64,000 nt of DNA from an uncultured Bacteroidales bacterium (GTDB lineage Bacteria; Bacteroidota; Bacteroidia; Bacteroidales; VadinHA17), in the NCBI GenBank assembly GCA_963849615.1, contig CAWKIC010000056.1, positions 6,074-70,073 on the forward strand, in the 5' to 3' direction. Position 1 is the stretch's first letter, and every line of letters starts with the position of its first letter. Below, piece by piece: positions 4,726 through 60,930 of the stretch. The notes under the pieces were generated by a model, which worked only from the letters and a program-made list of their open reading frames with translations, ran no database searches and was not told the origin of the DNA. A program made the position numbers and the translations under genes.

Positions 4726-4998
4726 CTTAAGGAATAGGACAGCTTATGAATCAAATTGTATACAACTGATTTGCAATAATTTACATTGGGGTTGTTGAAA
4801 AAGTCAAAATCCCTTAACCGCAGAGGGCGCAAAGGGAAGACGCAAAGTTCGCAAAGAGCTGAATTTATGTGTTTTAGCTTTGCGTTCTTTGCGACATCTT
4901 TGCGTTCTTTGCGGTTAAAAAGGACTTTTTAAACAGCCCCAACTTATTTAATTGTATCTCAGCTAAATATAATTCTCAGTCTTAAACTGATTCTTAAG
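4726..4998. repeat. composite hairpin repeat, CGCAAAG-word subfamily with CTTAAGGAATAGG...leader
   Basis: The core at 4788-4940 has termini GGGGTTGTTGAAAAAGTC and GACTTTTTAAACAGCCCC. The arms hold CGCAGAG/CGCAAAG x4 (4819-4856) and CTTTGCG x4 (4878-4913). The outer leader 4726-4787 is about 80 percent identical to 38837-38899. Confidence 0.75.
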
Positions 4999-5020
4999 AT
5001 CGCCTATGCCAAAGGGGGCT

Positions 5021-5047
5021 AAAAGCAAAAAGGCGCCCTGGGGCGCC
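5021..5047 (-). terminator. intrinsic terminator downstream of tsf
   Basis: The minus strand reads GGCGCC-CCAG-GGCGCC followed by TTTTTGCTTTT, 27 nt after the tsf stop. Confidence 0.65.
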
Positions 5048-5073
5048 GTGGTAATATTGAATTATGAACCAAT

Positions 5074-5904
5074 CTATAAATTCAAAGTGTAACGATTAAA
5101 AGCAGTTACTGTTAATTCCTTATCAGCCGACTGAAGGTATTGTCTGATAGTCATTTTGTTGTCCTTGACAAAATCCTGGTTAAGCAGGGTGTTTTCCTTG
5201 AAAAATTTTCCGAGTTTACCCTGAGCTATCTTCTCAAGCATATCTTCGGGCTTGCCGTCGCGTCTGGCCTGATCCTTTCCTATTTCGATCTCCTGAGCAA
5301 TAACTTTCGCGGGCACATCATCTTTATCAATTGCAATCGGGCTCATAGCAGCAATCTGCATTGCAACATCCTTATAGACCTGAACATTCTGTCCGGCCTT
5401 TGAAAAACCAACCAGTGTGGCAAGCCTGTTTCCTGGATGGATATATGCCTGAACATGGGCGGCCTCGATCTTTTCATAATAAGCAACCTCTAATTTTTCG
5501 CCAATGATTCCTATATATTCAACAATTTTACCGCCAACAGTAGTTTTATCCATCGGTAAAGCCTTTAATCCCTCAAGGTCTGTGGGTTTCTTTGCAAGTG
5601 CGATATCGAGTATTTTGTTTGCCAGTGAGATAAACTCAGCATTTATTGCCACGAAATCAGTTTCACTGTTAAGCACTATCATGGCACCCGACTTGTTATC
5701 GGCGTTAGTTCTTGCCAGAACGACACCTTCAGTAGCTTCTCTGTCGGCCCTCTTACTGGCAACGAGTTGTCCCTTTTTCCTGATGATCTCAATAGCCATG
5801 TCGAAATTTCCGTTTGATTCCTCAAGAGCTTTTTTGCAATCCATCATTCCGGCTAAAGTAACTCTCCTCAGTTTTGCAACATCTGCAGCATTTATAGTCA
5901 CCAT
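5074..5904 (-). CDS. tsf: translation elongation factor Ts
   Basis: 276 aa. The N-terminal UBA-like motif LRRVTLAGMMDCKKALEES and the rest of the sequence are typical of EF-Ts. Confidence 0.95.
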   Translation of the reverse strand: MVTINAADVAKLRRVTLAGMMDCKKALEESNGNFDMAIEIIRKKGQLVASKRADREATEGVVLARTNADNKSGAMIVLNSETDFVAINAEFISLANKILDIALAKKPTDLEGLKALPMDKTTVGGKIVEYIGIIGEKLEVAYYEKIEAAHVQAYIHPGNRLATLVGFSKAGQNVQVYKDVAMQIAAMSPIAIDKDDVPAKVIAQEIEIGKDQARRDGKPEDMLEKIAQGKLGKFFKENTLLNQDFVKDNKMTIRQYLQSADKELTVTAFNRYTLNL

Positions 5905-5943
5905 TCTAAAATCTTTCTTTATGCGTTATTAACTAATAAAATA

Positions 5944-6831
5944 TTATTCTTCTTCCGGCTCTTCAGTTTCGGTAACAACCTCATCTTCCTCTTCAATTTC
6001 AATTGCAACAGGTTTTTCTTCAACTTCCACTTCCTCTTCTTCTTCAACGATTGCTTCAATCACTGATTCAGGGAGGTCTTTGGTTTCAAGTTCTTTTCTG
6101 ATGAATTTTTTGTCTTTCATAGCCGGTTCCTTGTCTTTTTCCAGCTTTCTTTCATTAAGGCCTTCCTCAATTGCCTGGCAGAGAATATCAACAATCAGTG
6201 TTATTGATTTTGATGCGTCGTCATTAGCCGGGATCGGGAATTCGATATCGGTCGGATTGGAATTGGTGTCAACCATTGCAAAAACAGGAATACCAAGTCT
6301 CTTAGCCTCTCTTACAGCAATATGTTCCTTCAGAACATCAACAATAAAGAGAGCCGAAGGGAGTCGTGTAAGGTCGATGATGCTTCCGAGTGTCTTTTCG
6401 AGTTTAGCTCTCTGGCGTGTAACCTGGAGCCTTTCGCGTTTGGACAGGTTGGTGAAGGTACCGTCGGTAGCCATTTTATCGATAGATCCCATCTTTTTGA
6501 CAGCCTTCCGGATCGTCGGGAAGTTTGTCAGCATTCCACCTGGCCATCTTTCTGTGACATAAGGCATGTTAACCTGTTTTACTCTTTCAGCAACAATCTC
6601 TTTAGCCTGTTTCTTGGTGGCAACAAAGAGGATTTTCTTTCCGGACCGGGCAATTTGCTTCATTGCAGAAGCTGCTTCATCGAGTTTAACGATGGTTTTA
6701 TGAAGGTCAATGATATGAATTCCGTTGCGCTCCATAAATATATAGGGAGCCATTGCGGGATTCCATTTTCTTTTAAGGTGTCCGAAATGAACACCGGCAT
6801 CAAGTAATTCTTCAAAATTTGTTCTTGGCAT
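5944..6831 (-). CDS. rpsB: 30S ribosomal protein S2 with acidic C-terminal tail
   Basis: MPRTNFEELLDAGVHFGH... is the canonical S2 start (ATG at 6829-6831). About 45 C-terminal residues are Glu-rich. Confidence 0.94.
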   Translation of the reverse strand: MPRTNFEELLDAGVHFGHLKRKWNPAMAPYIFMERNGIHIIDLHKTIVKLDEAASAMKQIARSGKKILFVATKKQAKEIVAERVKQVNMPYVTERWPGGMLTNFPTIRKAVKKMGSIDKMATDGTFTNLSKRERLQVTRQRAKLEKTLGSIIDLTRLPSALFIVDVLKEHIAVREAKRLGIPVFAMVDTNSNPTDIEFPIPANDDASKSITLIVDILCQAIEEGLNERKLEKDKEPAMKDKKFIRKELETKDLPESVIEAIVEEEEEVEVEEKPVAIEIEEEDEVVTETEEPEEE

Positions 6832-6944
6832 TTTAGCTTTTTTTAAGTTTACATTCTTTTCAATCAATTGCAGAGTAGTTCCATGCAGGAAGTCTCTGTA
6901 ATTTAGATACTAAACTTGCATCTATGATGACTGATCTGTTTTTT

Positions 6945-7331
6945 TTAACGTTTGCTGAACTGGAATCTCTTCCTGGCTTTTGGCTGGCCTGGTTTTTTTC
7001 TTTCAACTTCCCTTGGATCGCGGGTAACAAATCCGGCAGCCTTGAGCACCGATTTGGTTTCAGGATCGATCTGTACAAGGGCTCTTGTAATTCCAAGACG
7101 AAGAGCTTCGGCCTGGCCTTTCACACCGCCGCCGTCGAGATTCACCCGAATGTCATACTTTTCAAGTACATTCAGGGCAACTAGCGGCTGGGTTACAACA
7201 TACTGCAAAGTCTCAGCACCAAAATATTCCTTATAATCACGTTCGTTTACAGTTATTTTCCCCTTACCATCACTTAAAATTACTCTGGCAACGGCTGCTT
7301 TTCTTCTCCCAAGTGCATTAACTGGCTCCAT
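6945..7331 (-). CDS. rpsI: 30S ribosomal protein S9
   Basis: 128 aa ending in the canonical ...KARKRFQFSKR. Confidence 0.95.
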   Translation of the reverse strand: MEPVNALGRRKAAVARVILSDGKGKITVNERDYKEYFGAETLQYVVTQPLVALNVLEKYDIRVNLDGGGVKGQAEALRLGITRALVQIDPETKSVLKAAGFVTRDPREVERKKPGQPKARKRFQFSKR

Positions 7332-7349
7332 ATCTGTTTCTTAAATGTT

Positions 7350-7793
7350 TTAAAGTACTATTTTCTTAGGTTTCTGGGCTTCATGCGGATGCGTTTCACC
7401 TGGATAAACATGCATATTCCGGTATATTGCCCTTCCGAGCCTGCTTTTTGGAAGCATTCCTCTTACAGCATGCTCAACCAGGCTGATGGGATTCTTTTTC
7501 AGCATCTCTTCTGCAGTGGTAAACCTCTGGCCACCGGGATAACCGGTATGTCTTACGTATTCCTTATCAGACCATTTTTCTCCTGACAGGGAAACTTTTG
7601 CGGCATTGATAACAACAACATTATCCCCGCAATCGACATGAGGAGTAAAATTGGTTTTGTGCTTTCCTCTGAGTGTAGAAGCTATCACCGTCGCAAGACG
7701 GCCTAAAGTTGCGCCCTCTGCGTCGATAATTACCCACTCCTTGATTACAGTATCCTTATTTGCCGATACCGTTTTATAGCTTAAGGTGTTCAC
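7350..7793 (-). CDS. rplM: 50S ribosomal protein L13
   Basis: L13 sequence begins at a GTG (7791-7793): VNTLSYKTVSANKDTVIKEWVIIDAEG. The upstream 38 codons of the tracked ORF are not L13-like. Confidence 0.88.
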   Translation of the reverse strand: MNTLSYKTVSANKDTVIKEWVIIDAEGATLGRLATVIASTLRGKHKTNFTPHVDCGDNVVVINAAKVSLSGEKWSDKEYVRHTGYPGGQRFTTAEEMLKKNPISLVEHAVRGMLPKSRLGRAIYRNMHVYPGETHPHEAQKPKKIVL

Positions 7794-7951
7794 TTTATAA
7801 TTTTTTATTTTTAAAACACTTGAACTTAATGTAAAACCCCCTATTTTGGGTCTGCAAAAATACAATATATTTCCTAATAAAAAAGAATATTGACCAGAAT
7901 TTAACAATCATAAATTAAACTGGCTTAATTTTACAAACCAATATTGGATTT

Positions 7952-8470
7952 ATGCAGGAAGAAAAAAGGATAGCGCGGGATTTTTTTACCCGGGACGTGC
8001 TCGTAGTCGCCCCTGCACTTTTGTCAAAGACTCTGGCAATAAGGTTTGATGATATAATCAGAAGATTCACCATAACAGAAACTGAAGCATACAGGGGTGA
8101 GGAGGATAAAGCGTGTCATGCCTGGAAAGGAAGAACTCCAAGGACCGAAATAATGTATCATGAGGGGGGCAGACTTTACATTTACCTTGTTTACGGGATG
8201 CACTGGATGCTTAATATAGTGACCGGAGAAGAGAACAATCCCCAGGCTGTCCTGATAAGAGGAATCGAAAACTGTAAAGGTCCGGGGAGGGTTACAAAAG
8301 TGTTGGGCATCGACAGGACTTTTTATGGTGAGGACCTGACTGTTTCTGACAGGATATGGCTGGAAGGATCGGGGATTCCGGCTGGAATCCAAACCGGAAG
8401 CAGGATAGGGATTGATTATGCGGGGGAATATTGGAAAAGCAGGCCCTGGAGGTATTTTCTGACTTGTTAG
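7952..8470 (+). CDS. mpg: DNA-3-methyladenine glycosylase (MPG/AAG family)
   Basis: FFTRDVLVVAPALL...TETEAYRGEEDKACHA...LYIYLVYGMHWMLNIV...AVLIRG match the MPG family signature. Confidence 0.82.
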   Translation: MQEEKRIARDFFTRDVLVVAPALLSKTLAIRFDDIIRRFTITETEAYRGEEDKACHAWKGRTPRTEIMYHEGGRLYIYLVYGMHWMLNIVTGEENNPQAVLIRGIENCKGPGRVTKVLGIDRTFYGEDLTVSDRIWLEGSGIPAGIQTGSRIGIDYAGEYWKSRPWRYFLTC

Positions 8471-9573
8471 TGTTGTTTAAGGGACCCCAGCCGGAAGAGC
8501 TTATCAAACCTGAGATGAAGGGTCACGGCATTGTCCATTCTCTTACGATCCATATCGTAATAACCATCAAAAGCAAAATATAATTCCAGGAAACTCTCAG
8601 GAAGAAGAGTAATATTCACCGAACCTGTGATTATTTTCCTTATATGAACAGTCACATTTTCAATATGATCCGAAACGGAACTGAAAATAAAATTCCCCTC
8701 GGGCGCGTAAAAGTCGTGCGAGGTCCAGTAACCGGCATTAAAATCAACGATTTTATAGATGTAGAATATCTTATGCCATTCCCCGCGTCCGTAGTTTATA
8801 CCGGAGGGCGCATTTCTTCTGAGGGAATTGCCCCTGAAGATCAGATACTCAAAGCCTGTCTTACCGTATTTTTGTTCTCCAAGGTCAAAGCTGACCCTTA
8901 CTCCGCCGGCGAAGTTAAGATAGGTCTCAGTCTGTTCGGGGTAATCGCTTATCTGACCTCCATAGTGTTTGAATTGTAGTTGAAGAGGTACCTCCAGCCT
9001 TATCAGGTCTGCTATCAGGGGAGATGAATATTTGAATGATTCACCAGCGGAAAATATCTCCCGCTCCGAATCTCCCTTAAATATGTAATTTTCCCAGCTC
9101 AGCCAGGTATCACTGAGGAAATGATCGCTGAAAAATCTAAGCTGAAGCCCGTCTTCCGAATAGTTGGTGTACAGCCTTTCTCTGTTGTAATGCGGGTCGA
9201 ATAATTCATTTTTATAGTTGGCAGACAGCGAACCGATTGTAATGGAAGTGTTTTCGGAAAAGTTATATGTTGTTGAAAAGAGAGGCTTGATAACTGAAAA
9301 TTTATTTGTTCCCGCGTAGCTCAGAAGATGAGTCCCAAGGCGGAGGGTCACCTTTGCAGAGGGATGGTAGATAAGCTCGGGATGCAGGAAATAGCCAATG
9401 AGCGTATAACCCTCCGTTACCGGATTAGAATACTCATTGTTCCTTATAAAGTTAACATTCCTGAAATTGAAATATAGTTTCTCAGAAGAGGAACTCGTAT
9501 CTGATTTTTCCTGCCCGCTGACCGGAACCATTGCCAGGAAAAGAAAAAGAAGCACCGGAACCGGGTATCTCAT
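8467..9573 (-). CDS. hypothetical secreted / outer-membrane protein
   Basis: The signal peptide MRYPVPVLLFLFLAMVPVSGQ starts at the internal ATG 9571-9573. The composition is aromatic-rich with alternating hydrophobicity, suggesting a beta-barrel. I did not recognise a family. Confidence 0.5.
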   Translation of the reverse strand: MRYPVPVLLFLFLAMVPVSGQEKSDTSSSSEKLYFNFRNVNFIRNNEYSNPVTEGYTLIGYFLHPELIYHPSAKVTLRLGTHLLSYAGTNKFSVIKPLFSTTYNFSENTSITIGSLSANYKNELFDPHYNRERLYTNYSEDGLQLRFFSDHFLSDTWLSWENYIFKGDSEREIFSAGESFKYSSPLIADLIRLEVPLQLQFKHYGGQISDYPEQTETYLNFAGGVRVSFDLGEQKYGKTGFEYLIFRGNSLRRNAPSGINYGRGEWHKIFYIYKIVDFNAGYWTSHDFYAPEGNFIFSSVSDHIENVTVHIRKIITGSVNITLLPESFLELYFAFDGYYDMDRKRMDNAVTLHLRFDKLFRLGSLKQH

Positions 9574-9703
9574 CAGGGTTTTTATTTCAGGCAAAAGTAG
9601 CAAAATTAGTTTCAAGTTAAAATGAAGTTAAATAGTACACCCATTGTGCTTTAATAACATTTTTTTACGTTCTTTGTTTTCTCGGATATAAAAAAAATAT
9701 CAT

Positions 9704-12764: not shown

Positions 12765-12770
12765 GATTTT

Positions 12771-16936: not shown

Positions 16937-16941
16937 CGTCT

Positions 16942-17935
16942 ATGTTTTTACGAAGATTCAAGGGCACCGGACCTGAAGTCATCGCACTGATTTTTATAGT
17001 TACGGTTCTTGTCTGGATAGGTCCCATATTGAATCCGGCGAATCCGTCATCGCCGGACTTTGTATGTGGAACCCATGCCTCTTTTCGGGTTACTTGCAAG
17101 CATTACGGGCCAAAATCAGATTGTCGGCCTTCTTTTAACTATTCTGCTTGTCCTTCTTACAGCCTTTCTTCTTGTAAACTTCAATACTTCAGGATTCTTC
17201 ATCAGTGAAAGGACTTTCCTTCCGGCGCTGTTTTATATTCTCTTCAGCGGCCTGTTTCCCACGGAACAGGTTTTGAATCCTGCACTTCCGGCAGCAATAT
17301 TTCTGATACTCGCCGTTAGAAAGATAATGGATTCATACAAAATTCAGTATACTGCGTTCTCCTTTTTCGATGCCGGACTGCTTATAAGTATCGGAAGTTT
17401 ATTCTATGCGGGATTTATCTGGTTTGGCCTGCTTCTTATTATCGGGATTGTAATTCTGAGAACAGGCAATGTCAGGGAGATTATAATATCACTTCTCGGA
17501 CTCATAACACCCTGGTTCATTACCTTTGGTCTTTATTATGTAACAGATAATGATCCGGGATCCCTTTTATCAGCCATAAAATACAACTTATCCGTACCTG
17601 TCCGGGATATCAGTCTGACAGGGATTGAAATTGCCGCTCTTACCGGGCTTGGAATAATCCTGGTGATCAGCATTTTATTCCTTTTTTCAGTGATAAACAC
17701 CAAAAAGATAAAGTCTCGAAAGACTTTCATATTATTAATGTGGGCGTTTATAATTTCAGCCGGCATCTACTTTTTTGCAAAAGGGGTATCAATTGAAATT
17801 TTGTGGCTGGCAGGAGTACCTGCAAGCTATCTTCTTTCGCACTATTTCGTGTTCAGCAAACAAAGGTTTATCCCTGAAATTTTATTTTCACTGCTTTTTG
17901 TTCTTGTTGCCCTGATGCAGATCGGCAGGCCTTGA
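16942..17935 (+). pseudogene. hypothetical polytopic membrane protein, probable +1 frameshift near 17059-17061
   Basis: ORF 16942.. begins plausibly (MFLRRFKGTGPEVIALIFIVTVLVWIGPILNPANPSSPD) and then turns Cys/Ser-rich. The +1 frame from 17060 reads LYVEPMPLFGLLASITGQNQIVGLLLT... with 7-8 TM helices. The TTT run at 17059-17061 is the likely site. I did not recognise a family. Confidence 0.55.
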
Positions 17936-21818: not shown

Positions 21819-21977
21819 CGCCAAGCAGACCGAACCAGGGAAAAAAATGATCTGTTTGTTGTCAGCTGTGATAAAGTTGCTGATTTTAAGCATTGGATTG
21901 ATAAATGATAGTGTGGTAATAATTAATTTTTTTACATTTGTCCGTTCCGGTACTATACGGATAAAGTGGAAAAACCT

Positions 21978-22100
21978 GAAACCCATTAACCGCAAAGTTC
22001 GCTAAAATTGAAAACCTGAGAACGCAAAGAAATGCAAATCAACATTATAACTTTGCGACCTTTGCGAAAACTTTGCGTGCTTTGCGGTTAAAAAGGACGC
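21978..22100. repeat. hairpin repeat, CGCAAAG-word subfamily
   Basis: The left terminus is AAACCCATTAACCGCAAAGTTCGC. The right arm has CTTTGCG x4 at 22051/22060/22071/22080, the same 9/11/9 spacing as 4878-4913, and ends GCGGTTAAAAAGGAC. Confidence 0.75.
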
Positions 22101-22154
22101 ACAAACCTAAAAAGGAAACCAGTAACCAGATTTAATTATTTTAAGCTTATAACC

Positions 22155-26840: not shown

Positions 26841-26920
26841 TTTATTTACAGATTTGTTTAAAGTTGTTGAGTAAGTATTATAAAGGTCAGTTTCTCAGTT
26901 TGATACTAAATTAGTATCTA

Positions 26921-27087
26921 ATTAACCTAAGTTGCTAGTTACTTGTTGCTTGTTGCTAGTTATTTGATAATTAGCATCATGATTAATGCAAAAATATTAA
27001 ATACATTTTAACAAAATCGCTTATTGTTCTGTTAATCAACAACTAACCAGTAACAAGGAACCAGCAACTAGCAACTTGAGTTAATTA
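26921..27087. repeat. hairpin repeat, CAGCAAC/CAGTAAC-word subfamily
   Basis: The left arm ATTAACCTAAGTTGCTAGTTACTTGTTGCTTGTTGCTAGTTA pairs with the right arm CAACAACTAACCAGTAACAAGGAACCAGCAACTAGCAACTTGAGTTAAT across a loop of about 60 nt. Confidence 0.75.
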
Positions 27088-36258: not shown

Positions 36259-37431
36259 ATGAAAAGATTTATTTCAGGCCTCTCCATCCTGCTCATTATA
36301 CTTTCAGGATGCGGTTCATCAAAGAAACAACTCGAAAAAGGAAACTATGAAGCTGCTATTGATAAGGCAGTAAGGCAGTTACGTAAAGATCCGCGTGACA
36401 CTAAACAGATTGAAATACTCGACAGATCGTATAACATTGTAAATGAGCAGGATAATGAACGAATCAGGTTTCTCAAGCTGGAAGGAAAGCCGGCCAACTG
36501 GGATGAGATCTACCTGGTAAACAAGAGGTTGAACGACAGACAGGCTTTTGTAAGAACAGTAACTCCACTTACCCTTAACGGCAAAACAATTGAATATCCC
36601 TATATCGATTACATGCCGGAGATGATTGCTGCCAAGCGCAAATCAGCTGACTTTTATTATGCTCATGGGAACGAACTGATGAAGAATGAATTGAAAGATT
36701 CATACAGACAGGCTTTTTATGAATTCGTGAGAGCAAAAGAATATATAGGTGACTATGAGGGCATAGACAATAAAATTCAGGATGCTAAATACTTGGGAAT
36801 GAGCCGGGTGCTCATTTCTCTGCGGAATATGTCGATCCTGAAGTTTCCACAGGAGTTTGAAGATGAGCTTCTGGCGATTGATCTCCCGAGATTGAACAGC
36901 GAATGGGTCGAGTACCATACTCAAAGCCATAATACAGAAGCTAAATACGACTATTATGTTAATGTGGTTGTCAGAAATATAGCAGTAAGCCCGGATCAGA
37001 CGATGCAGCGGGATACTGTCGTCAGAAAGGAAGTACAGGACGGATTCAATTACCAGCTTGATAAAAAAGGTAATGTGATGAAAGACTCCCTGGGGAATGA
37101 TATAAAAACAGCAAAATACAAATCACTTCAGTGTGCCCTTATTGAAACGATTCAGTCAAAGGAATGCCGTATCGATGGCGACGTTGAAGTCGTACAGGTA
37201 AACCCGGATAAAATACTTAAAAAAGATCCCATTGGCGCGCGGTCTGATTTTGAAAATGTATCAGCACGGGCATTGGGAGATGTCCAGGCTTTAAGCGCTG
37301 CACAGATTGAAAAAACCAAATTGAAGCCTGTGCCGTTCCCATCGGATATGGAAATGGTTTTCCGTTGTTCGGAGACACTTAAGCTGGCAATAAACGGCGC
37401 AATCCTGAGTAACAGGAGGTTTATTAATTGA
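36259..37431 (+). CDS. hypothetical lipoprotein
   Basis: It has a lipobox (LLIILSGCGSS). It is 390 aa and I did not recognise a family. Confidence 0.55.
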   Translation: MKRFISGLSILLIILSGCGSSKKQLEKGNYEAAIDKAVRQLRKDPRDTKQIEILDRSYNIVNEQDNERIRFLKLEGKPANWDEIYLVNKRLNDRQAFVRTVTPLTLNGKTIEYPYIDYMPEMIAAKRKSADFYYAHGNELMKNELKDSYRQAFYEFVRAKEYIGDYEGIDNKIQDAKYLGMSRVLISLRNMSILKFPQEFEDELLAIDLPRLNSEWVEYHTQSHNTEAKYDYYVNVVVRNIAVSPDQTMQRDTVVRKEVQDGFNYQLDKKGNVMKDSLGNDIKTAKYKSLQCALIETIQSKECRIDGDVEVVQVNPDKILKKDPIGARSDFENVSARALGDVQALSAAQIEKTKLKPVPFPSDMEMVFRCSETLKLAINGAILSNRRFIN

Positions 37432-37435
37432 ACCG

Positions 37436-37540
37436 GGTTGCTGGTTATTTGTTATTAATTCCGGTACATGGTCACCTGACGACATTAGTTTAACTTTCAA
37501 CCAGTACCCAGTAACCAGGACCAGCAACTTGATTTAATCA
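37436..37540. repeat. hairpin repeat, CAGCAAC/CAGTAAC-word subfamily
   Basis: GGTTGCTGGTTATTTGTTATTAA pairs with TCAACCAGTACCCAGTAACCAGGACCAGCAACTTGATTTAAT. The right end is homologous to 27061-27087 and stops 1 nt before the hflX ATG. Confidence 0.7.
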
Positions 37541-38775: not shown

Positions 38776-39045
38776 GTTTACCCCTAAATCCCCTAAAGGG
38801 GACTTATAAGAACCCCCTTTAGAGTATACTCGTCAACTTAAGGAATAGGAAAACTTATGAATCTAATTGTATGCAGTTGATTTTCTGTAACTTAAATATG
38901 GGGCTATTGAAAAAGTCCTTTGTGAACCTTGGTGATAACCCCTGCCTGCCGGCAGGCAGGTTTGAGTACCTTTGTGGTAAAGTAATTTATTGAACCACAA
39001 AGGATCACAAAGTATAACACTAAGGAACACAAAGGGAAAAAGTCT
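38776..39045. repeat. composite repeat cluster: G/C mini-hairpin module, CTTAAGGAATAGG leader, CACAAAGG-word hairpin
   Basis: 38776-38815 is GTTTACCCCTAAATCCCCTAAAGGGGACTTATAAGAACC. 38837-38899 is a leader homologous to 4726-4787. 38900-39045 is colinear with the reverse complement of 51030-51163, apart from a 20-nt insert. Confidence 0.8.
38941..38960. repeat. 20-bp perfect palindrome CCTGCCTGCCGGCAGGCAGG (inserted copy)
   Basis: It is self-complementary over all 20 nt. An identical copy lies at 60835-60854. It is absent from the homologous position of the 51.1-kb element, whose junction is at 51122/51123. Confidence 0.85.
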
Positions 39046-42784: not shown

Positions 42785-42960
42785 GATTGCGGATTGCGGA
42801 TTTTGATTTTGAACATAAATATTTTTTACCACAAAGGTTCTCAAAGGTATTCACAAAAGGTCACAAAGGTTTTCACAAAGGTTCACAAAGGTTTCCACAA
42901 AGGTTCACCAAGGTATTCACAAAGGTTTTCACGAAGTAACACAAAGTAAAACATAGAAAT
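42785..42960. repeat. CACAAAGG-word array (11 direct units) forming the left flank of the GxxExxY gene
   Basis: GATTGCG x2 and GATTTT x2 lie at 42785-42812. Between 42828 and 42946 there are 11 units of [CT]CAC[AC]AAGG spaced 9-13 nt apart (mean about 11). Confidence 0.85.
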
Positions 42961-43332
42961 ATGAATATTGAAAAGATTTTTAAAACACTATTGGATTGCT
43001 CTTTTAGAGTCCACTCTGCGCTAGGTCCAGGATTGCTTGAGAGTGTATATGTTGAATGTTTGTTTTATGAACTTTTAAAGGCAGACCTAAAAGTTGAAAA
43101 ACAGAAACCCCTGCCGCTAGTTTATAGGGAAGTAAAGCTTGAAGCAGGCTATAGGATCGACTTGTTGGTGGAGAGTAGTGTAGTTGTGGAGATTAAGTCA
43201 ATTGAAGCCTTAGCGGATATTCACCTGGCTCAAATACTAACTTATCTGAAATTGTCGGGGTGCAAGTTAGGTCTATTGGCAAATTTTAATGTTGAACATC
43301 TGAAGGATGGTATCCGAAGAGTCGTCTTGTGA
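42961..43332 (+). CDS. GxxExxY protein (PD-(D/E)XK nuclease-like superfamily)
   Basis: 123 aa. It carries the signature GLLESVY, then ...YRIDLLVESSVVVEIKS..., which is D/E-x-K-like core spacing. The size and C-terminal ...GIRRVVL are typical of the family. Confidence 0.85.
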   Translation: MNIEKIFKTLLDCSFRVHSALGPGLLESVYVECLFYELLKADLKVEKQKPLPLVYREVKLEAGYRIDLLVESSVVVEIKSIEALADIHLAQILTYLKLSGCKLGLLANFNVEHLKDGIRRVVL

Positions 43333-43495
43333 TCCTTAGTGTACCTTTGTGAAGTCCTTTGTGGCCCTTAGTGGTAAAAAGAGTAAGCATCCGGGGAAAT
43401 AATTACTAAGTATTTAACCACAAAGGACACAATGGATTCTCTTTGGATCACAAAGTAATTATGGTGTCCGAAGAGTCGTCCTTTACCCTGCGAGG
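43333..43495. repeat. CACAAAGG-word hairpin on the right flank of the GxxExxY gene, followed by a duplicate of the gene's 3' end
   Basis: A hairpin runs from about 43327 to 43457 (CTTGTGATCC...GGATCACAAAG). ATGGTGTCCGAAGAGTCGTC at 43461-43480 repeats 43307-43326 with 19/20 identity. Confidence 0.8.
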
Positions 43496-49840: not shown

Positions 49841-49946
49841 CCACAGAGGTAGCACAGAGGTCCACAGGGACCGTTCAAGATTGGTCGATCAGAAAAACTT
49901 TTGACCCGCAGATCACGCAGATTTACGCAGATCACTATGGCAGATA
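49841..49946. repeat. word-array repeat, CACAGAGG units followed by CGCAGAT units
   Basis: CCACAGAGGTAGCACAGAGGTCCACAGGG lies at 49841-49869. CCCGCAGATCACGCAGATTTACGCAGATCAC lies at 49905-49935. The unit spacing is about 10-11 nt. Confidence 0.7.
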
Positions 49947-51029: not shown

Positions 51030-51163
51030 AGGGGCTGTGGAAAAAGATGGATTTTTGGCTTTTGTTATCCTTTGTGATCCTTTGTGGTTCAATAAATTTA
51101 CTTTTTACCACAAAGTACTCAAAGGTTATCACTAAGGTTCACAAAGTCCTTTTTCAACAGCCC
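51030..51163. repeat. CACAAAGG-word hairpin repeat, complete copy with both termini (empty site for the 20-bp palindrome)
   Basis: The termini are GGGGCTGTGGAAAAAG (51030) and CTTTTTCAACAGCCCC (51163). The arms are CCTTTGTG x2 and CACAAAG / CTCAAAGG / CACTAAGG / CACAAAG. Confidence 0.85.
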
Positions 51164-51265
51164 CATATGCAAAGTCAGAAGAGGTTTAAAATCCCTGCAC
51201 ACAAAGAGAAAGACAAACAATATAACTTTGCATCCTGTGTGCTGCCATACAACGTTTCAAACCTC

Positions 51266-52630: not shown

Positions 52631-52631
52631 C

Positions 52632-53587: not shown

Positions 53588-54020
53588 GGAAATCCACCCC
53601 TAAATCCCCCAGGGGGGACTTTCAATGCTTCACTAAGAATCCAGGCAACCTGGAAAGTTGCAGGTTTTGCTCCAAGCCCCCCTTGGGGGGTTTGGGGGTA
53701 AGCCCTTATAAAGGACTTTTTCCCTTTGTGTTCCTTTGTGTTCCTTTGTGTTTTACTTTGTGATCCTTTGCGGTATTGATTTAAAATTAACCACTAAGGT
53801 ACACAAAGGGTTTCACTAAGAATTCACAAAGGACTTTTTTAGCAGCCCCTTCTTCCGGAAATCCACCCCTAAATCCCCCAGGGGGGGACTTTCAAGAATC
53901 CTCTCACCACCGTTTACCCCTAAATCCCCCAGGGGGACTTTTAAGAACCGATTTTAGCGAGGCAAATTTCTTTGCGAACTTGGGTTTTAATTCTTAGCGA
54001 ACTTTGCGGTTAATGGATTT
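53588..54020. repeat. repeat cluster: three G/C mini-hairpin modules, one GGGG-loop module, one CACAAAGG hairpin, one CGCAAAG half-element
   Basis: 53588-53626, 53857-53901 and 53911-53948 carry ...CCCCTAAATCCCCCAGGGGGGACTTT.... 53672-53705 is AGCCCCCCTTGGGGGGTTTGGGGGTAAGCCC. 53708-53848 is a CCTTTGTG x4 / CACAAAGG hairpin ending CAGCCCC. 53955-54020 ends GCGAACTTTGCGGTTAATGGATTT. Confidence 0.8.
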
Positions 54021-54133: not shown

Positions 54134-55315
54134 ATGAAAATTCCTTCAGGACCAGGTTTTAAACATGGACATTCCATAGAGCTGCTTCGAAGCGGAGAGC
54201 CCTTTTTTAATTGTAATATCAGGTTAATCGACGAGGCTCGGCACTATATCCATTTTCAATCCTATATTATTGACGAGGATGAAACAGGGTTAAATGTTAT
54301 CGATGCTCTTGTAAGGGCTGCTGGAAGAGGTGTCAGGATATACCTGCTGCTCGATGCCTTTGGTACTGAGTACCTGTCGGGTGAACTGATAAAAAGAATC
54401 GACGACTCAGGGATCCTGTTGCGTTTTTTTTCTCCTGCATTTATTACAAAAGGCTTTCAGCTAAGTCTGAGACTCCATCATAAAGTTTTGTTGGTTGATG
54501 GTAAAGTTGCTGTTATCGGAGGGATGAACTTTGCGGATCGTTATCACGGGACCCGGAAGAAAAAGGAATGGCTCGATTTTGCCCTTTTAATAAAAGGACC
54601 TGAATGTGCCCGGATTAACAACATCCTTAAAAAACACTGGAACAAAGCTTTTACTCCAAAGAGCGAACGGGCGCATGAAGTGGTTCACAGCACTGAAATT
54701 TACAAGGAAAATGTAAAAATCAGGGTCCTTGAAAATAACTGGTATCGCAAGAAAATTGAAATTCTGAGAAGTTACCGGGCTGCTTTCAGGTTTGCGCAGG
54801 ACAGGATGATAATATTTGCGAGTTACTTCCTGCCAGGCCGTAATGAGCGTAAGCTTCTCAGGATGGCAGGCCGCAGGGGGGTGGATATCACAATTGTCCT
54901 TGCCGCAGAGTCGGATGCCCCCATATTCAAAAGAGCTACGGGTTTTCTTTACGATTTCATACTCCGGAGTAACATCAAAATATATGAGTATGTGCCTTCA
55001 AACCTTCATGCCAAGGTTGCTATTGTTGATGGAAAATGGTGTACAATAGGGAGTTACAATCTAAACCACCTCAGCGACTATGGGAGTATAGAAATGAATG
55101 TTGAAGTGATGGATGTCCCCTTTACTCAGCAGTTTGAAAAGCTGCTTCTCAAAATTATCAGGAATGACTGCAGGCAGGTTACAGTTGAGGAGAATCTGCG
55201 GAGAAAAACATGGTATTCACAATTTGCCGGCTGGGTCTCTTACCAGATGATCAGGTTATTGATGAGGATTATGGGCCAGATGACGTCAAAGAAGAAGTCT
55301 CCAATTCGAAACTAA
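54134..55315 (+). CDS. phospholipase D-like protein (cardiolipin-synthase-type, two HKD motifs)
   Basis: It has HHKVLLVDGKVAVIGGMN and LHAKVAIVDGKWCTIGSYN. Confidence 0.82.
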   Translation: MKIPSGPGFKHGHSIELLRSGEPFFNCNIRLIDEARHYIHFQSYIIDEDETGLNVIDALVRAAGRGVRIYLLLDAFGTEYLSGELIKRIDDSGILLRFFSPAFITKGFQLSLRLHHKVLLVDGKVAVIGGMNFADRYHGTRKKKEWLDFALLIKGPECARINNILKKHWNKAFTPKSERAHEVVHSTEIYKENVKIRVLENNWYRKKIEILRSYRAAFRFAQDRMIIFASYFLPGRNERKLLRMAGRRGVDITIVLAAESDAPIFKRATGFLYDFILRSNIKIYEYVPSNLHAKVAIVDGKWCTIGSYNLNHLSDYGSIEMNVEVMDVPFTQQFEKLLLKIIRNDCRQVTVEENLRRKTWYSQFAGWVSYQMIRLLMRIMGQMTSKKKSPIRN

Positions 55316-55445
55316 ATCCATTAACCGCAAAGTTCGCGAAGGGGTACGCAACAGATCGCAAAGAGCTAATTATTAACGTCTTGACGTTTTAACTTTGCGT
55401 TCTTTACGCCTCCAAAGCGTGCTTAGCGGTTAAAAAGTCTTAACC
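55316..55445. repeat. hairpin repeat, CGCAAAG-word subfamily
   Basis: It starts immediately after the PLD stop with ATCCATTAACCGCAAAGTTCGC. The right arm has CTTTGCG/CTTTACG/CAAAGCG/CTTAGCG at 55393/55402/55413/55422 (9/11/9 spacing) and ends GCGGTTAAAAAGTC. Confidence 0.75.
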
Positions 55446-55469
55446 ACACGGACCGGGAACGATTGACCC

Positions 55470-56333: not shown

Positions 56334-56389
56334 AGGTTAAAGGTTAAGTTATTGTTGCCTGTTAATATTTATTGGAAAGGTATTAAAAA

Positions 56390-56472
56390 AATTTTATTTC
56401 CCGCAGATAACGCAGCTGTCACGGCAGATTTAATCTGCGTACGATCAGAGGGATCAGCGGGAAATTTTTACT
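56390..56472. repeat. hairpin repeat, CGCAGAT-word subfamily
   Basis: TTTCCCGCAGATAACGCAGCTGTCACGGCAGAT pairs with ATCTGCGTACGATCAGAGGGATCAGCGGGAAA. Confidence 0.72.
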
Positions 56473-56529
56473 TTTCATCTACACAAAAGACATTAGTATA
56501 TTTGTTATAATGTAACTTATAAACTCTGT

Positions 56530-57387
56530 ATGAAAATTCAGCTATTCAACATATCAAATTTCAAAGTTGACGGAGGTGCAATGTTCGGTGTTATTCCGAA
56601 AGCTTTATGGTCACGCGTGTACGCGTCGGATGAGAATAACCTCATAACTCTCACGCTTAATTCACTTATAGTCGAAACCGACAGTCATGTTATTCTGGTT
56701 GATACCGGTTGGGGTGACAAGCAGGATGAGAAATTCTTCCGTCATGTTTATCTGCATGGCGGAGAGGGTCTGATTAATGGGCTCGGAAACCGGGGGTACA
56801 GGCCTGAAGACATAACCGATGTTTTCCTCACCCATCTTCATGCTGACCATTGCGGTGGTGGAGTGGTCAAAAGCAAATCAGGAGAGGGTTATGAACTGAC
56901 CTTTCCGAATGCAGCTTACCATGTAAGCCGTAGCCAATGGGAATGGGCAATAAAGAATAACCTTCGGGAAGAAGATGCTTTTCTGGAAGAAAACATAATT
57001 CCCATTTCTCAGAGCGGTCACCTGAACCTTGTTGATGAAGAGGGTGAATTGTTTAAGGGATTTTCAGCAAGGATATGTTACGGACACACACCCGGACTTC
57101 TGATCCCCGTAATTGAATATGAGGGAAGAACCCTGGTATATACAGGTGATCTTATTCCTACCATTGCACACATTCCCCTGATATGGAATATGAGTTATGA
57201 TGTGGAATCGCTTAAAACGATTGATGAGAAGAGCAGGCTTCTGGAAGAAGCATTAATGAATAATTATATTCTTGTATTCCAGCATGATGCAAATGTTGAA
57301 TGCTGCAACCTGCAAATGACTCCGAAAGGTATCCGGGCTAAGGACAAATTTCAGTTTTCTGAAATACACCCCCCTGAAGGGACGTAA
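56530..57387 (+). CDS. MBL-fold metallo-hydrolase
   Basis: It carries the THLHADHCGG metal-binding motif, and the later H and D residues are in the expected order. Confidence 0.8.
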   Translation: MKIQLFNISNFKVDGGAMFGVIPKALWSRVYASDENNLITLTLNSLIVETDSHVILVDTGWGDKQDEKFFRHVYLHGGEGLINGLGNRGYRPEDITDVFLTHLHADHCGGGVVKSKSGEGYELTFPNAAYHVSRSQWEWAIKNNLREEDAFLEENIIPISQSGHLNLVDEEGELFKGFSARICYGHTPGLLIPVIEYEGRTLVYTGDLIPTIAHIPLIWNMSYDVESLKTIDEKSRLLEEALMNNYILVFQHDANVECCNLQMTPKGIRAKDKFQFSEIHPPEGT

Positions 57388-57540
57388 ATGAATGCTTAGT
57401 TTGCCCCCTAACGGGACCAACGCCCCCCGACCCCCTGAAGGGGGCTAAAATACGATCATCTACTTGCTTTCATTACAAGAAAAGCCTGGTGGGAGCACAG
57501 AATTAGCCCCCATCGGGGGGTTGGGGGGTGATCCTACCTT
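57366..57540. repeat. cluster of G/C mini-hairpin modules
   Basis: CACCCCCCTGAAGGGACG at 57368-57385 overlaps the MBL stop region. The cluster also includes GACCCCCTGAAGGGGGCTAAAA at 57428-57449 and TTAGCCCCCATCGGGGGGTTGGGGGGTGATCC at 57503-57534. Confidence 0.7.
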
Positions 57541-57662
57541 GAAAATGCTTCCCAGAAGTGATAAATGCAACTCCATTGTTTCTTTATCCATTTGTTGTTA
57601 ATTTTGAAACAATATAGGATCCGGGATTTAAGTATTTTATTGTTAATAAAATAACACAGGAT

Positions 57663-59276
57663 ATGGCAGACTTTATTTATGAAAAGCAGTTCCAGATTGA
57701 AAAGGACACTACAAGCTACAAGCTCCTGACAAAAGAGTATGTTAAAACAGTTGAATCCGATGGCCGGAGGGTATTGAAAGTTGATCCGCGCGGTCTTGAG
57801 CTGCTTGCTAAAAAGGCAGTTTCGGACCTCTCATTTTTCCTCCGCACCTCACATCTCGAAAAGCTCCGCAGGATACTTGACGATCCGGAAGCCACGGATA
57901 ATGACAGGTTTGTAGCCTACCTGATGCTTAAAAATACTGTTATTTCATCAAAAGAAGTTCTTCCCTGGTGCCAGGATACGGGTACCGCAATCGTAATCGG
58001 GAAAAAGGGTGAAAATGTCTTCACCGGAGTAAATGACGCAGAGTATCTTTCCAGAGGGATCTACGACACATACCAGGAAAAAAGCCTCAGGTATTCGCAG
58101 GTAGTTCCTGTCACTATGTTTGATGAAAAAAACAGCGCTACCAACCTTCCCGCACAGATAGATATCTATTCAACTCCGGGGATGATGTATGAATTCCTGT
58201 TTATTACAAAGGGTGGAGGTTCGGCTAATAAGACATTCCTCTTTCAACAAACAAAATCTCTACTGAATGAAGAATCCCTGACCCGGTTTGTTAAGGAAAA
58301 GATTAAGGAGCTGGGTACCTCTGCCTGTCCACCTTATCATCTTGCTCTTGTAATTGGGGGAACATCGGCCGAAGCTACATTAAAGACTGTCAAAGAGGCA
58401 TCAGCAGGTTATCTTGATCATCTCCCTGTAACCGGTAATGCAAGCGGACGTGCTTTCAGGGACATTGAATGGGAAGAAAGGATTGAAAAGATCTGCCAGG
58501 AATATGGGGTAGGTGCTCAGTTCGGAGGTAAATACTTTGTGCATGATGTAAGAGTAATAAGGCTTCCCCGACATGCAGCTTCATGTCCGGTAGGACTTGG
58601 AGTGAGTTGCAGCGCTGACAGGAATGTAAAAGCCAGGATTGATGAGAACGGTATATTCCTTGAAGAGCTTGAAAAAGATCCGGTACGCTTCCTTCCGGAT
58701 AAGTCTTCTGAACTTGAAAAGCCTGTTGAGATCGACCTTGACCGTCCTATGAACGAAGTCCTGAGAGAGCTTACAAAATACCCCGTCAAAACTCGTTTGA
58801 GTCTTACAGGTACCCTGATAGTTGCCCGCGATATAGCTCATGCCCGGATAATGAAGATGATTGATGAAGGGAAGACAATACCCGATTATTTCAGGAAACA
58901 TCCCATTTATTATGCCGGACCCGCAAAGACCCCGACAGGTTTGCCCTCCGGAAGTTTTGGCCCCACAACAGCCGGAAGAATGGATTCATATGTTGAAAGC
59001 TTCCAGAGGTACGGAGGTTCACTTATTATGGTGGCAAAAGGAAACCGGAGCCGCGCGGTTATAGAGTCATGCAAAAAGTACGGCGGTTTTTACCTTGGAT
59101 CAGTGGGTGGTCCGGCGGCATTACTAGCTGCCGAAAATATAAAATCAGTCGAAACTGTCGATTTTGAAGATCTCGGGATGGAGGCAATCAGGAAGATCAG
59201 GGTTGAAAATATGCCGGCTTTCATTATCACCGACGACAAAGGGAATGACTTTTTTGATGAGTATAATTCCAAATAG
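57663..59276 (+). CDS. fumA: class I (Fe-S) fumarate hydratase
   Basis: 537 aa. [10 protein letters not shown]..., ...GGGSANK... and a C-terminal beta-type domain (...YAGPAKTP...GPTTAGRMD...GKGNR) are typical of single-chain class I fumarase. Confidence 0.88.
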
Positions 59277-59286
59277 GCCTGGTTCA

Positions 59287-60718
59287 TTAATTCAGCTCCT
59301 CAATTGTAAACGCATCATGTCTGTCTAGACTCAACCAGTACTTTATTGAGTTTTTCCTGACGAGTTCCCAGTAGATATTGCTGTCGAGCCCATATATATA
59401 GTTTATCTCCTTTAGCTCTGAACTTATTTTTTCTGCTATTTCAGGTTTCAGGGTAAGCCTGATCTTTTTGTCCATATATCTGAATTCTGCCACAGGGGAT
59501 GATGTCGTATTATTAAGCACTGTAAGCAAACCATGACCGGGTGTTGCGCCTGTGCTTACCTGCAAACCGTCATTCATGCAGCTGAGTGGCGGAACGGAAC
59601 CGGCGAAAGAGGTCGCGGTAAATTCATCAACACCGGTATTGAAGTATTCCCTTGCCCGGATTCCCATCTTTACTCCCACAATCGCAAATACTCCAAGGTG
59701 TCTGTGAAGCTCATTTGCCAGCACGCCGGAGATCCACTCATCAGTCCCGTATTTGTTAATTATCTCATTTACCGAGCCTTGTATGTCTTCAAAGTAAAAC
59801 GACGGGTCGGACGGGAAAACCTTTATGACCTGATTTCTGGCTGCCGTCTCCCCGCTCAGGATTTTGATCATACATTCCCTTAATCCGGCCGGATCAGAAG
59901 GAACACAATCCGATACATTTCCAAGTGTTTTGTTTATAAAAAGATCCTGGTTGTGAAGGAATATTGCTGCCATTTCATCAGTTCCGGTAAATGAGAACTT
60001 ATGCTCTTTTAAATTTTCAGATCCAAAGAATTCAGAGATTTTTTTTCCATAAGGAGTTCCGACTTTATTTATCATGTTAATAAGCTCTTCGTTGTAAAAG
60101 TCAGCTATACTGAATTTCCTCACGATCCTGACCGGGATCTCCTGTCTCAGAATCCCCACCGATGAGTTCTTATCGATATTATAATTAAATCCATCCTTAT
60201 CACCTGATCCATCCGCGCTCCAGATAAAATCCTTAACCTGCGCGCCAAAGCCGGGGATTTTCCTTAAAAGATTGTAGGCTGTCGACATGCTCCCCAGGCA
60301 GATAAAACTGATTTTGGTTTTTTCGGCAGCCATTATGGCACTTGTCATTATGATAAAATCATCTGCACTTCCGGAATTGATCTCAGTTTCATCTCCCCAT
60401 TTGGTTTGGAGCGCAACGGGGAATTCCTTTGGCTTATAATTACTGGTTCTGTTAATAGCGACCGGAATTCCTTCGTGATGAAATGAATTAAGCAGACTTT
60501 TAACCTTTATGAATGCATTTTCTGCCAGAAAGTGCTCCGGGCGATACAATGATCCCCAGCACCCTGACATCCGGTGATGCCAGCAGCATCGTTATTGCCC
60601 TAATATCGTCAATCCCTGCGTCGGTATCAATTATCACATAGTGTGAGGGTTTCCATGGGTGGGAATAAAGGGTGACGCAAAGCATCAGGCTGATAAGAAA
60701 GAAAGCGACTCTTTTCAT
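59287..60718 (-). pseudogene. secreted nucleoside-hydrolase-like domain fused to FmdE-like domain, +1 frameshift near 60525
   Basis: ORF 60500..60718 gives a signal peptide plus HYVIIDTDAGIDDIRAITMLLASPDVRVLGIIVSPGALS and then nonsense. The +1 frame continues AENAFIKVKSLLNSFHHEGIPVA... to 59287. The CC run at 60525-60526 (GG on the coding strand) is the likely site. The C-terminal ~170 aa (HLGVFAIVGVKMG...PPLSCMNDGLQVSTGATPGHG) look FmdE-like. Confidence 0.68.
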
Positions 60719-60764
60719 ATTGTAATATTATTCCTGCAAAAATAATATTTATTACCTGCCCAAC

Positions 60765-60930
60765 CTCCCTGCGCGGTAACTCCGTGCGGCTTTCGGGAGG
60801 AAATGAGTTTCCGGTTTCCCGCAGATCACGCAGACCTGCCTGCCGGCAGGCAGGTTTGCGCAGATTAACCCCCATCAATGGCACTGTCATTGCGAGGAAG
60901 CATACATCGTAGGTCGACAAAGCAATCACC
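60765..60930. repeat. composite repeat: CGCAGAT words interrupted by the 20-bp palindrome, plus CATTGCGAGG...AAAGCAATC module
   Basis: TTTCCCGCAGATCACGCAGA is followed by CCTGCCTGCCGGCAGGCAGG (60835-60854) and then TTTGCGCAGATTAACCCCC. A CCTCCC...GGGAGG hairpin lies at 60765-60800. Confidence 0.75.

Follow-up and report, generated by a model that had tools for sequence, protein, structure and literature searches.

Phased word arrays around a GxxExxY gene and their gene-less relatives, several with IS1182-type ends, in the spacers of an uncultured Bacteroidales bacterium

The stretch of DNA analyzed here (the window) comprises 64 kb of contig CAWKIC010000056.1 from an uncultured Bacteroidales bacterium (assembly GCA_963849615.1) and covers only part of the source genome. 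It is densely genic, with 43% G+C and 16% non-coding sequence, and one of its genes encodes a small protein of the GxxExxY family. An original prediction held that 13 intergenic spacers of this window share one architecture, in which the arms of long imperfect hairpins are built from a short word repeated at about one helical turn. The finding is real but composite. The 13 spacers hold several nested element types rather than a single architecture, and most of the loci are gene-less versions of the inverted word arrays that flank the GxxExxY gene, several of them packaged as MITEs (miniature transposable elements with inverted repeats) of the IS1182 type. The window contains one complete cassette (42823-43380), an adjoining gene-deleted cassette, and at least seven gene-less hairpins. 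The two cassettes are laid out as follows, where F and R denote the upstream and downstream word arrays.

42823..42953, + strand: F array belonging to the GxxExxY cassette; some 11 words of the CACAAAGG type in an expansion by 22-nt (10+12) units; the ATG follows after 8 nt.
42961..43332, + strand: GxxExxY gene; open reading frame (ORF) of 123 aa, by sequence a minimal PD-(D/E)XK nuclease (PF13366, TIGR04256).
43334..43380, + strand: R array; four CCTTTGTG-type words at +2, +12, +24, and +34 past the stop codon, terminating in GGTAAAAA.
43417..43480, + strand: gene-deleted cassette in tandem to the intact one; a second F array (four words), then a copy of the ORF end.

The segments near 42.8k and 43.3k had been predicted to form the arms of a non-coding hairpin. 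Instead, they bracket the 123-aa ORF. The GxxExxY protein had been named as a candidate for pull-down experiments, but the architecture was not recognized as the flank of its own gene. The F array pairs with positions 43334-43380 as a 47-nt inverted repeat with 79% complementarity, and the orthologous gene in L001 lies just where a 4+4 hairpin (TTAACCACAAAGG...CCTTAGTGGTTAA) would have its loop. Here and below, L001, L002, and L003 are syntenic contigs of relatives, and other L-numbers are further retrieved loci. In the gene-deleted cassette, positions 43461-43480 match the last codons of the GxxExxY ORF (43307-43326) at 19 of 20 nucleotides. Filled and empty cassettes in tandem are frequent, being found in the window and in L141, L169, L184, L193, and L203. 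The F array of the window has about 11 words versus four in its orthologues, and Tandem Repeats Finder (TRF) reports a period of 22 with 4.5 copies at 42830-42927. This expansion in 22-nt units indicates that the arrays can behave as a minisatellite.

The window protein matches PF13366 (E 6e-40) and TIGR04256 (E 8e-42). Residues E27, D67, E77, and K79 are invariant and the PD-(D/E)XK site is thus intact; the AlphaFold2 (AF2) model has a predicted local distance difference test (pLDDT) value of 89. A sequence search of the PDB found no solved relative, PADLOC returned marginal Cas4 matches only and no defense-system assignment, and PHROGs gave a match to one family of unknown function. By a word-index search, the protein has at least 8,000 relatives across Bacteroidota and other phyla. 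A published survey gives the function of the GxxExxY family as unknown (PMC3424549). In the full-text literature searched, neither the association of GxxExxY genes with arrays nor the repeats are described, which is not proof of novelty, and the matches to strings of the words or of the terminal repeats discussed below were primer coincidences.

Metagenome contigs were scanned for relatives of the protein, a procedure that is blind to the words, and 80 loci were returned. At least three words upstream and at least three complementary words downstream (≤1 mismatch) accompany 64 of 83 genes, with modal downstream word positions of +2/+12/+24/+34. When the loci are deduplicated and those with enough flanking sequence are counted, arrays bracket the gene in 33 of 47 independent contexts and in 24 of 25 copies of the orthologous spacer (57 of 72 altogether). 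Control windows placed 300 nt further out hold arrays in 0 of 46 cases. Long F...R pairs contain a GxxExxY gene in 42 of 45 cases, a sample that is biased by the retrieval of the loci and that was not used as evidence.

The module that emerges consists of two inverted arrays, usually of four 7-8-nt words each. The word is CnCnAAGG or, in other lineages, CGCAAAG, CACAGAG, or CGCAGAG, and the spacing within an array is nearly invariant at 10/12/10 or 9/11/9 nt. An extension to T(T/A)ACC marks the outermost word, beyond which A/T runs lie, and the word type varies by protein clade (CACAAAG, CGCAAAG, CACAGAG, or CGCAGAG). Cultured organisms show the same layout: Bernardetia has the same arrays around its GxxExxY gene, and in Bacteroides finegoldii the order is radA, three copies of CACAGAGG, the gene, and three copies of CCTCTGTG. 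A plasmid of Sphingomonas parapaucimobilis (L206; NZ_CP155749.1, 482837-483265) carries a GxxExxY gene between fabD and fabG, all co-directional, with CGCGAAGG-type words upstream only and hardly any downstream spacer.

A measure of the constraint on the words comes from about 29 metagenome loci that are orthologous to the window cassette and that occupy the same spacer, which runs from a CHU_C-domain gene to PNP_UDP_1. Duplicates and two aberrant loci were removed, leaving 24 non-identical cassettes (22 for the gene) for the identity comparison. Pairwise identity is 97.7% at the fixed word positions (CCTTnGnG), 68% at the two degenerate positions per word, and 41% in the linkers, compared with 86% at codon positions 1+2 and 38% at fourfold synonymous sites. 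Linkers and fourfold sites are therefore saturated, and the words are more constrained than the protein. The fixed word positions of gene-bearing cassettes are under very strong purifying selection.

Across the window the words are concentrated in spacers, as the original prediction had proposed. CACAAAGG is non-coding in 20 of 21 occurrences and the CGCAGAAG-like word CGCAAAG in 20 of 23, and the density of both in coding sequence is 0.02-0.06 per kb. Six loci contain phased runs of three or more exact 6-mers spaced 8-14 nt apart, versus 0.37 expected from dinucleotide shuffles. Inverted repeats were recovered at 4814/4898, 21986/22072, 38961/38987, 53722/53792, 26919/27030, and 37427/37520, and single-strand folding of the hairpins gives z values of -3.4 to -6.2 relative to shuffles. 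The size estimate of about 2.5 kb also holds, as the intervals add up to 2,504 nt, or 3.9% of the window. The gene-less elements that resemble the cassette arrays are listed here; TIR stands for terminal inverted repeat.

4717..5010, no strand assigned: three-layer nested hairpin of inverted repeats (folding z -6.2); ~70-nt outer arms at 4717-4787 and 4941-5010, IS1182-type TIRs at 4788-4805 and 4923-4940, and at 4814-4918 a core formed by a CGCAAAG 4+4 hairpin in cassette-like orientation (TTAACCGCAGAG...CTTTGCGGTTAA).
21960..22112, + strand: CGCAAAG-type MITE copy with decayed TIRs; right arm of four perfect CTTTGCG words at 9/11/9; aligns full-length to TIR-bearing copies.
38900..39045, + strand: CACAAAGG-type MITE copy, inside-out (R-loop-F); left TIR at 38900-38917, right TIR decayed; outer arm at 38826-38899.
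51031..51164, + strand: MITE of the CACAAAGG type, R-loop-F; two TIRs, with 3 and 2 mismatches.
53702..53849, + strand: CACAAAGG-type R-loop-F hairpin; right TIR at 53832-53849; G/C mini-hairpins around it.
53958..54020, - strand: half copy of a CGCAAAG-type element; the same ~90-nt piece lies in another spacer of L001.
55314..55445, + strand: CGCAAAG-type copy without recognizable TIRs, beginning at the stop codon of a phospholipase-D-like (PLD) gene.

These hairpins share the word, the spacing, and the end motifs with the cassette arrays, as gene-less copies of the GxxExxY flank. Three CTTTGCG arms had been predicted to keep an identical 9/11/9 spacing; this is exact at 4878 and 22051, but the arm at 55393 is degenerate, albeit in the same register. 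The element at 38900..39045 has a near-identical counterpart in L045 and L024.

The termini shared by the elements were recovered as well. GGGGCTRTTGAAAAAGTC termini lie at 4788, 38900, and 51031 and, reverse-complemented, end at 4940, 51164, and 53849. The terminus AAAYCCATTAACCGCAAAGTTCGC is found at 21979, at 55314, and on the minus strand at 53997-54020 with 0 mismatches, where 0 matches are expected. Their meaning differs from the one first assigned to them. Rather than being part of a conserved structural design, they are TIRs of IS1182-family insertion sequences (ISs), which occur in many phyla around unrelated cargo, the terminus GGGGCTGTTGAAAAAGTC being the 18-bp TIR of that family. 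Exact matches to GGGGYTGTTGAAAAAGTC, sought in one genome per species, number at least 120 stretches, including Bacteroidales, Planctomycetota, Nitrospinota, Hydrogenedentota, Verrucomicrobiota, Acidobacteriota, and others. At least 55 inverted TIR pairs (≤3 mismatches allowed) are spaced 90-260 nt apart, and a recurrent TIR distance of ~1.5 kb exposed autonomous elements of 1.5-1.9 kb in other phyla. Autonomous ISs bounded by GGGGCTGTTGAAAAAGTC lie at L027 3-1530, L066 1997-3507, L118 2354-3869, and L081 5419-7335. Their ORFs of 468-580 aa have the domains DUF772 and DDE_Tnp_1_6 and pass the NCBIfam IS1182 model NF033551 (342 and 380 bits versus a cut-off of 270), and the best plasmid matches carry the annotation of an IS1182-family transposase. 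At four additional loci, the TIR precedes the same transposase by 50-80 nt.

Because their GGGGCT...AGCCCC ends match the TIRs of autonomous IS1182-family ISs, the bounded word elements are MITEs. The original prediction had argued against the decay of a single MITE; the TIR-bearing copies are MITEs all the same. The MITEs are non-coding and about 130-180 nt in size, and 18 Bacteroidales copies were found among the retrieved loci in addition to those of the window. In the TIR-bounded Bacteroidales layout, TIRs of 18 nt enclose four words spaced 9/11/9 or 10/12/10, a ~20-nt loop, and four complementary words, for a total of ~151-155 nt that is alike for CGCAAAG, CACAAAGG, and CACAGAG elements. 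The CGCAAAG MITEs keep the cassette order (F-loop-R). The CACAAAGG and CACAGAG MITEs are inside-out (R-loop-F), an order that also arises where two cassettes abut. Cargo varies by phylum, and word hairpins are found in Bacteroidales or Rikenellaceae copies with one exception: in L035 (5573-5670), from a Bryobacterales metagenome-assembled genome (MAG), a 3+3 CACAGAT hairpin abuts the right IS1182-type TIR. Thus, word hairpins in such MITEs are not strictly confined to Bacteroidales.

We considered the TIR as a possible part of the GxxExxY cassette and dropped this idea. Among the 83 genes, one has a TIR, and that locus was retrieved via the TIR itself. Gene-bearing cassettes generally lack the TIR, so the TIR and the word module are independent. 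The insertion habits of the IS elements are visible in other phyla, where 5-bp target duplications surround the ISs and many MITEs (L066, L118, L032, L105, L111, and L041). Furthermore, the ISs at L066 1997-3507 and L118 2354-3869 and many MITEs (L032, L105, L111, and L113) are centered in G/C-rich palindromes such as CCCCCC-TTGAG-GGGGGG. This position, together with the 5-bp duplications, suggests a strong preference for hairpin loops.

From these comparisons, we consider it probable that the gene-less word hairpins are copies of the GxxExxY flank module, several of which were moved as IS1182-type MITEs, and that the words are candidate binding sites of the nuclease. The words would act as sequence-specific binding sites, and their mean spacing of ~10.7 bp would align the four words within an array along one side of a B-DNA duplex. 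The binding factor would act on the cassette in cis and is most probably the encoded GxxExxY nuclease, which is our best inference and which might sit as an oligomer on both arrays. Binding could serve the mobility, homing, or self-regulation of the cassette. Gene-less copies might be deletion derivatives that retain the sites, and they could have spread passively in trans via an IS1182-type transposase that favors palindrome loops. A bolder proposal, which we offer as a possible but rather doubtful extension, is that the GxxExxY gene and its 4+4 arrays form a previously unrecognized self-contained module. Its nuclease would recognize its own site arrays, in the DNA or in the transcript of its gene, so as to move, home, or regulate itself, while gene-less arrays would persist and hitch-hike in unrelated transposon ends. 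The original prediction had favored selection on structure or on protein-binding geometry over decay. The words and their phasing are indeed kept and a protein-binding geometry is a fair description of them, but the case for selection on hairpin structure as such is weak.

Several observations weigh against the interpretation that the words are sites of the GxxExxY nuclease that were later carried by MITEs. The protein has no separate DNA-binding domain, and its likeness by Foldseek to minimal Cas4 (the best match, E 7e-3) and to lambda-exonuclease cores is weak. CGCAAAG-type hairpins are present although the 64 kb contain no CGCAAAG-type gene, and the tracking of word type with protein clade may be simple linkage. 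No clear target-site duplication is evident at 4788-4940 or 51031-51164 in the window. By tblastn, the IS1182 transposase was found only in non-Bacteroidales loci and in none of the Bacteroidales sequences examined. The Bacteroidales MITEs share only the 18-bp TIR with the IS, whereas subterminal IS sequence is shared in MITEs of other phyla. TIRs are also rare on gene-bearing cassettes (1 of 83), and the interpretation gives no route by which the hairpins got between TIRs.

The pairing of the arms weighs in the same direction. The arms pair at 81%, and the register is unique, because slid controls give 35-48%. The covariation score of 0.101 exceeds that of all 500 shuffles (0.071), compensatory changes occur in the 2-nt linkers, and the linkers are 47-50% complementary. 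In addition, the upstream neighbor is co-directional with the GxxExxY gene in 31 of 35 independent contexts, which fits an RNA-level role in read-through transcripts. In such a transcript, the 5′ and 3′ arrays would form a long imperfect stem enclosing the ORF, perhaps as a processing or stability signal or as a substrate of GxxExxY acting as a ribonuclease, and the gene-less hairpins would be leftover stems. By analogy, the processing signal could resemble the ORF-bearing intervening sequences (IVSs) of 23S rRNA that are cut by RNase III. The very short spacers (e.g., fabD-GxxExxY-fabG) and the start of the R array 2 nt past the stop codon also agree with this role, as does the lack of an identified promoter belonging to the gene itself; a sigma-70 scan is uninformative for Bacteroidota.

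We nevertheless regard the RNA-level role as unlikely. A pairing constraint would allow compensatory drift, yet the same six bases persist in each of the eight words (98% identity). The mismatches between arms are mostly A.A (37) and T.T (29), and G.U pairs (19) are about as frequent as A.C (16). In several degenerate columns of the words, 6-12 of 17 sequences lack a pair and no compensatory change is seen, and complementarity at degenerate positions shows a slight excess (137 versus 126 ± 4.6 when permuted). The proposed check for compensatory changes gave a divided answer, positive in the linkers and negative at the degenerate word positions. Because the degenerate positions break pairs uncompensated and G.U is not in excess, the pattern argues for sequence-specific recognition of the words, with complementarity as a weaker contributor. 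Gene-less copies also lie in every orientation relative to their neighbors, and no Rfam family or terminator-like site coincides with the hairpins. In the window, two tRNAs alone reach the Rfam gathering score, and nothing relevant appears at E ≤ 1 in 38.7-57.6 kb. A scan for intrinsic terminators found 14 sites versus 17.8 expected, none of them in word hairpins, whose stems precede A runs or TIRs.

The relation between filled and empty hairpins could also be read in the opposite direction. If the empty 4+4 hairpins were primary, they might be landing pads: the nuclease would cut the loop and repair would insert a copy of the gene, using the arrays as homology arms (homing), while the spread of MITEs would create new sites. 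Identical arrays and boundaries in filled and empty versions, the excess of empty hairpins over genes in the window, the frequent filled-plus-empty tandems, and the intact catalytic residues are all in keeping with this idea. We judge it improbable because the sole direct intermediate is the gene-deleted cassette, which favors deletion. Moreover, most CACAAAGG-type MITE hairpins have the R-loop-F order rather than the gene-bracketing one, arms of 40 nt are short for recombination, and a typical homing cycle would not be expected to leave the orthologous cassette in place beyond the saturation of synonymous sites, as is seen here.

Comparison with relatives reveals how quickly these spacers change. 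The syntenic contigs carry SusD/RagB, TonB-dependent receptor, CHU_C, and LpxK genes. The PLD gene (54134-55315) has a 99%-identical match from a Bacteroidales bacterium MAG, and protein identity to L001, L002, and L003 is 87%, 81%, and 82%, respectively. The window and the three contigs differ at nearly every spacer, and a check of presence and absence at orthologous spacers, as the original prediction had suggested, thus shows relatives that differ in spacer content. The PLD-esterase spacer has four states: in the window it holds a CGCAAAG copy that lacks TIRs, in L001 a CACAGAG hairpin, and in L002 a full three-layer composite MITE, and in L003 the genes overlap and leave no spacer. The MITE at 51.0k has an orthologous copy in L001 only and is absent in L002 and L003, and the 638-nt spacer at 53.5-54.1k measures 119-317 nt in relatives. 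The CGCAGAT hairpin at 56.4k is common to L001 and L002 at the orthologous spacer, and L002 alone has a CGCAAAG MITE in its loop.

Rapid turnover of this kind might suggest neutral junk, namely a single decaying MITE family with an internal minisatellite, in which the words are conserved through recent transposition and concerted evolution. The copies with decayed TIRs at 22.0k, 55.3k, and 38.9k and the slippage expansion in the 22-nt unit would fit, and a published MITE of Bacteroidota, BrickBuilt of Porphyromonas gingivalis, also contains a minisatellite (PMC4596501). However, words that are 98% identical in 24 vertically inherited cassettes, while linkers and synonymous sites are saturated, are difficult to reconcile with neutrality. 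The 4+4 layout is also met repeatedly in different protein clades and phyla, built from different words, and the TIR is independent of the word module. The neutral reading is already contradicted for gene-bearing cassettes, and for the elements as a whole we consider it very improbable.

BrickBuilt is nonetheless one of the known elements closest to those described here. Both are intergenic MITEs of Bacteroidota that end in small inverted repeats and contain a short-period repeat of variable copy number, and the BrickBuilt unit of 23 nt (PMC4596501) is close in length to the 22-nt double-word unit seen here. BrickBuilt differs in having direct head-to-tail repeats without spacers, leader and tail segments, and no reported association with a gene family (PMC4596501). 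The word arrays are inverted, have linkers, normally occur as 4+4, and are tied to GxxExxY; compared by description, they fall outside BrickBuilt. Like IS-derived MITEs in general, the TIR-bounded elements are small, non-coding, multi-copy, intergenic, and polymorphic between relatives, with 18-bp TIRs identical to those of autonomous IS1182-family ISs. They differ in that the module they carry as cargo comes from a different genetic element.

An analogy of our own for the gene-bearing cassette is the 23S rRNA IVS of Coxiella with its S23p ORF. As described in PMC4990558, it is likewise a small, scattered, multi-copy ORF of unknown function within stem-forming inverted repeats, and it is regarded as selfish. 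The IVS protein is a four-helix bundle and its stem is unique, whereas GxxExxY has a PD-(D/E)XK fold and the cassette has phased words. The GxxExxY cassettes are seen between protein genes, with no rRNA context observed. Repetitive extragenic palindromes (REPs), their mosaic elements (BIMEs), and REPIN-RAYT systems (PMC3116915, PMC3733652) resemble the present elements in being short intergenic palindromes in nested mosaics that serve as IS targets and that are thought to be recognized by the product of a low- or single-copy gene. They are built on one palindrome of 20-40 nt rather than on four-word arms, and the GxxExxY gene lies inside the hairpin. The GTAG/CGTC tag of REPIN-RAYT is not evident in the word elements; no search for a RAYT gene was made.

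Cyanobacterial small dispersed repeats (SDRs) and the Nezha MITE, on which Elhai and Zhou each wrote in 2008 (cited in PMC3184786), reportedly include tiny palindromes nested in larger repeats or MITEs. The spacers of the window are alike in overall look, with no sequence identity claimed. A cyanobacterial origin of the window was rejected on account of the genes on the syntenic contigs and of matches named Bacteroidales.

The remaining loci of the window fall into other classes or lack a partner arm.

49841..49945, + strand: two solo arms, CACAGAGG x3 (49841-49868) and CGCAGAT x4 (49907-49945), neither with an inverted partner.
56395..56470, + strand: CGCAGAT 3+3 hairpin, without the invariant final G of the GxxExxY words.
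60811..60866, + strand: CGCAGAT array broken by a 20-nt palindrome at 60835-60854; no partner arm.
26919..27087, no strand assigned: 7-nt-repeat hairpin (AGTTGCT arms, by TRF), differing in class from the phased-word elements.
37427..37538, no strand assigned: hairpin of 7-nt repeats (CCAGTAC/CCAGCAA), not phased-word and akin to that at 26.9k.

For these loci the original prediction needs revision. Fewer than half of the CGCAGAT occurrences are non-coding (7 of 15), the loci at 49.9k and 60.8k are single arms, and no gene could be linked to the CGCAGAT loci. The two hairpins at 26.9k and 37.5k had been grouped with the phased-word elements at a spacing of 9-13 nt; TRF shows arrays with a 7-nt period there, and the two are unrelated to those elements. 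Such 7-nt tandem hairpins or arrays (AGTTGCT / CCAGTAA) lie directly upstream of genes at 26919-27087, at 37427-37538, and at L002 ~17540-17600, where the gene is SusC-like.

Further repeats are nested in or beside the word elements. The 20-nt perfect palindrome CCTGCCTGCCGGCAGGCAGG is inserted in word arrays at 38941-38960, where it breaks the left arm of the 38900..39045 copy, and at 60835-60854; it also occurs in L001, L024, L045, L095, L097, and L109 and looks like a very small mobile element of its own. On either side of the MITE are ~70-nt arms, GGCGTTAACTTAAGGAATAGG...AATTGTAT..., which pair with one another (4717-4787/4941-5010, 38826-38899, and L002 11210-11285), forming a third nesting layer around two window copies. 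G/C mini-hairpins (CCCCTAAATCCCCCAGGGGGGACTTT) stand beside word elements at 38781-38806, 53597-53622, 53866-53891, 53917-53942, and 57366-57540, and also in L001, L002, L008, L026, L037, and L056; a MITE in L097 is apparently inserted in one. Orthologous spacers contain further long tandem arrays (L001 9684-10000, L002 6004-6677, and L003 14843-15283), made of 8-nt GACCAGTA units, of C-rich repeats 30-40 nt in length, and of 33-nt GCACCTCACCCCAACC... repeats. The lineages of the window's relatives are generally rich in intergenic repeats.

For genome annotation, the hairpins point to hot spots at which the spacers of close relatives turn over. The IS1182-type TIR, which is identical across many phyla and seems to capture local hairpins and to land in palindrome loops, should be useful for annotating MITEs in uncultured lineages. 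The link between GxxExxY and the arrays accounts for intergenic repeats of a kind that breaks up metagenome assemblies. If the bolder proposal of a self-contained module is true, these spacers would exhibit a two-tier parasitism, composed of a nuclease cassette and the IS1182 MITEs. For the very large GxxExxY family (PF13366/TIGR04256), whose members are annotated just as "GxxExxY protein," the arrays are the first candidate DNA or RNA recognition sites.

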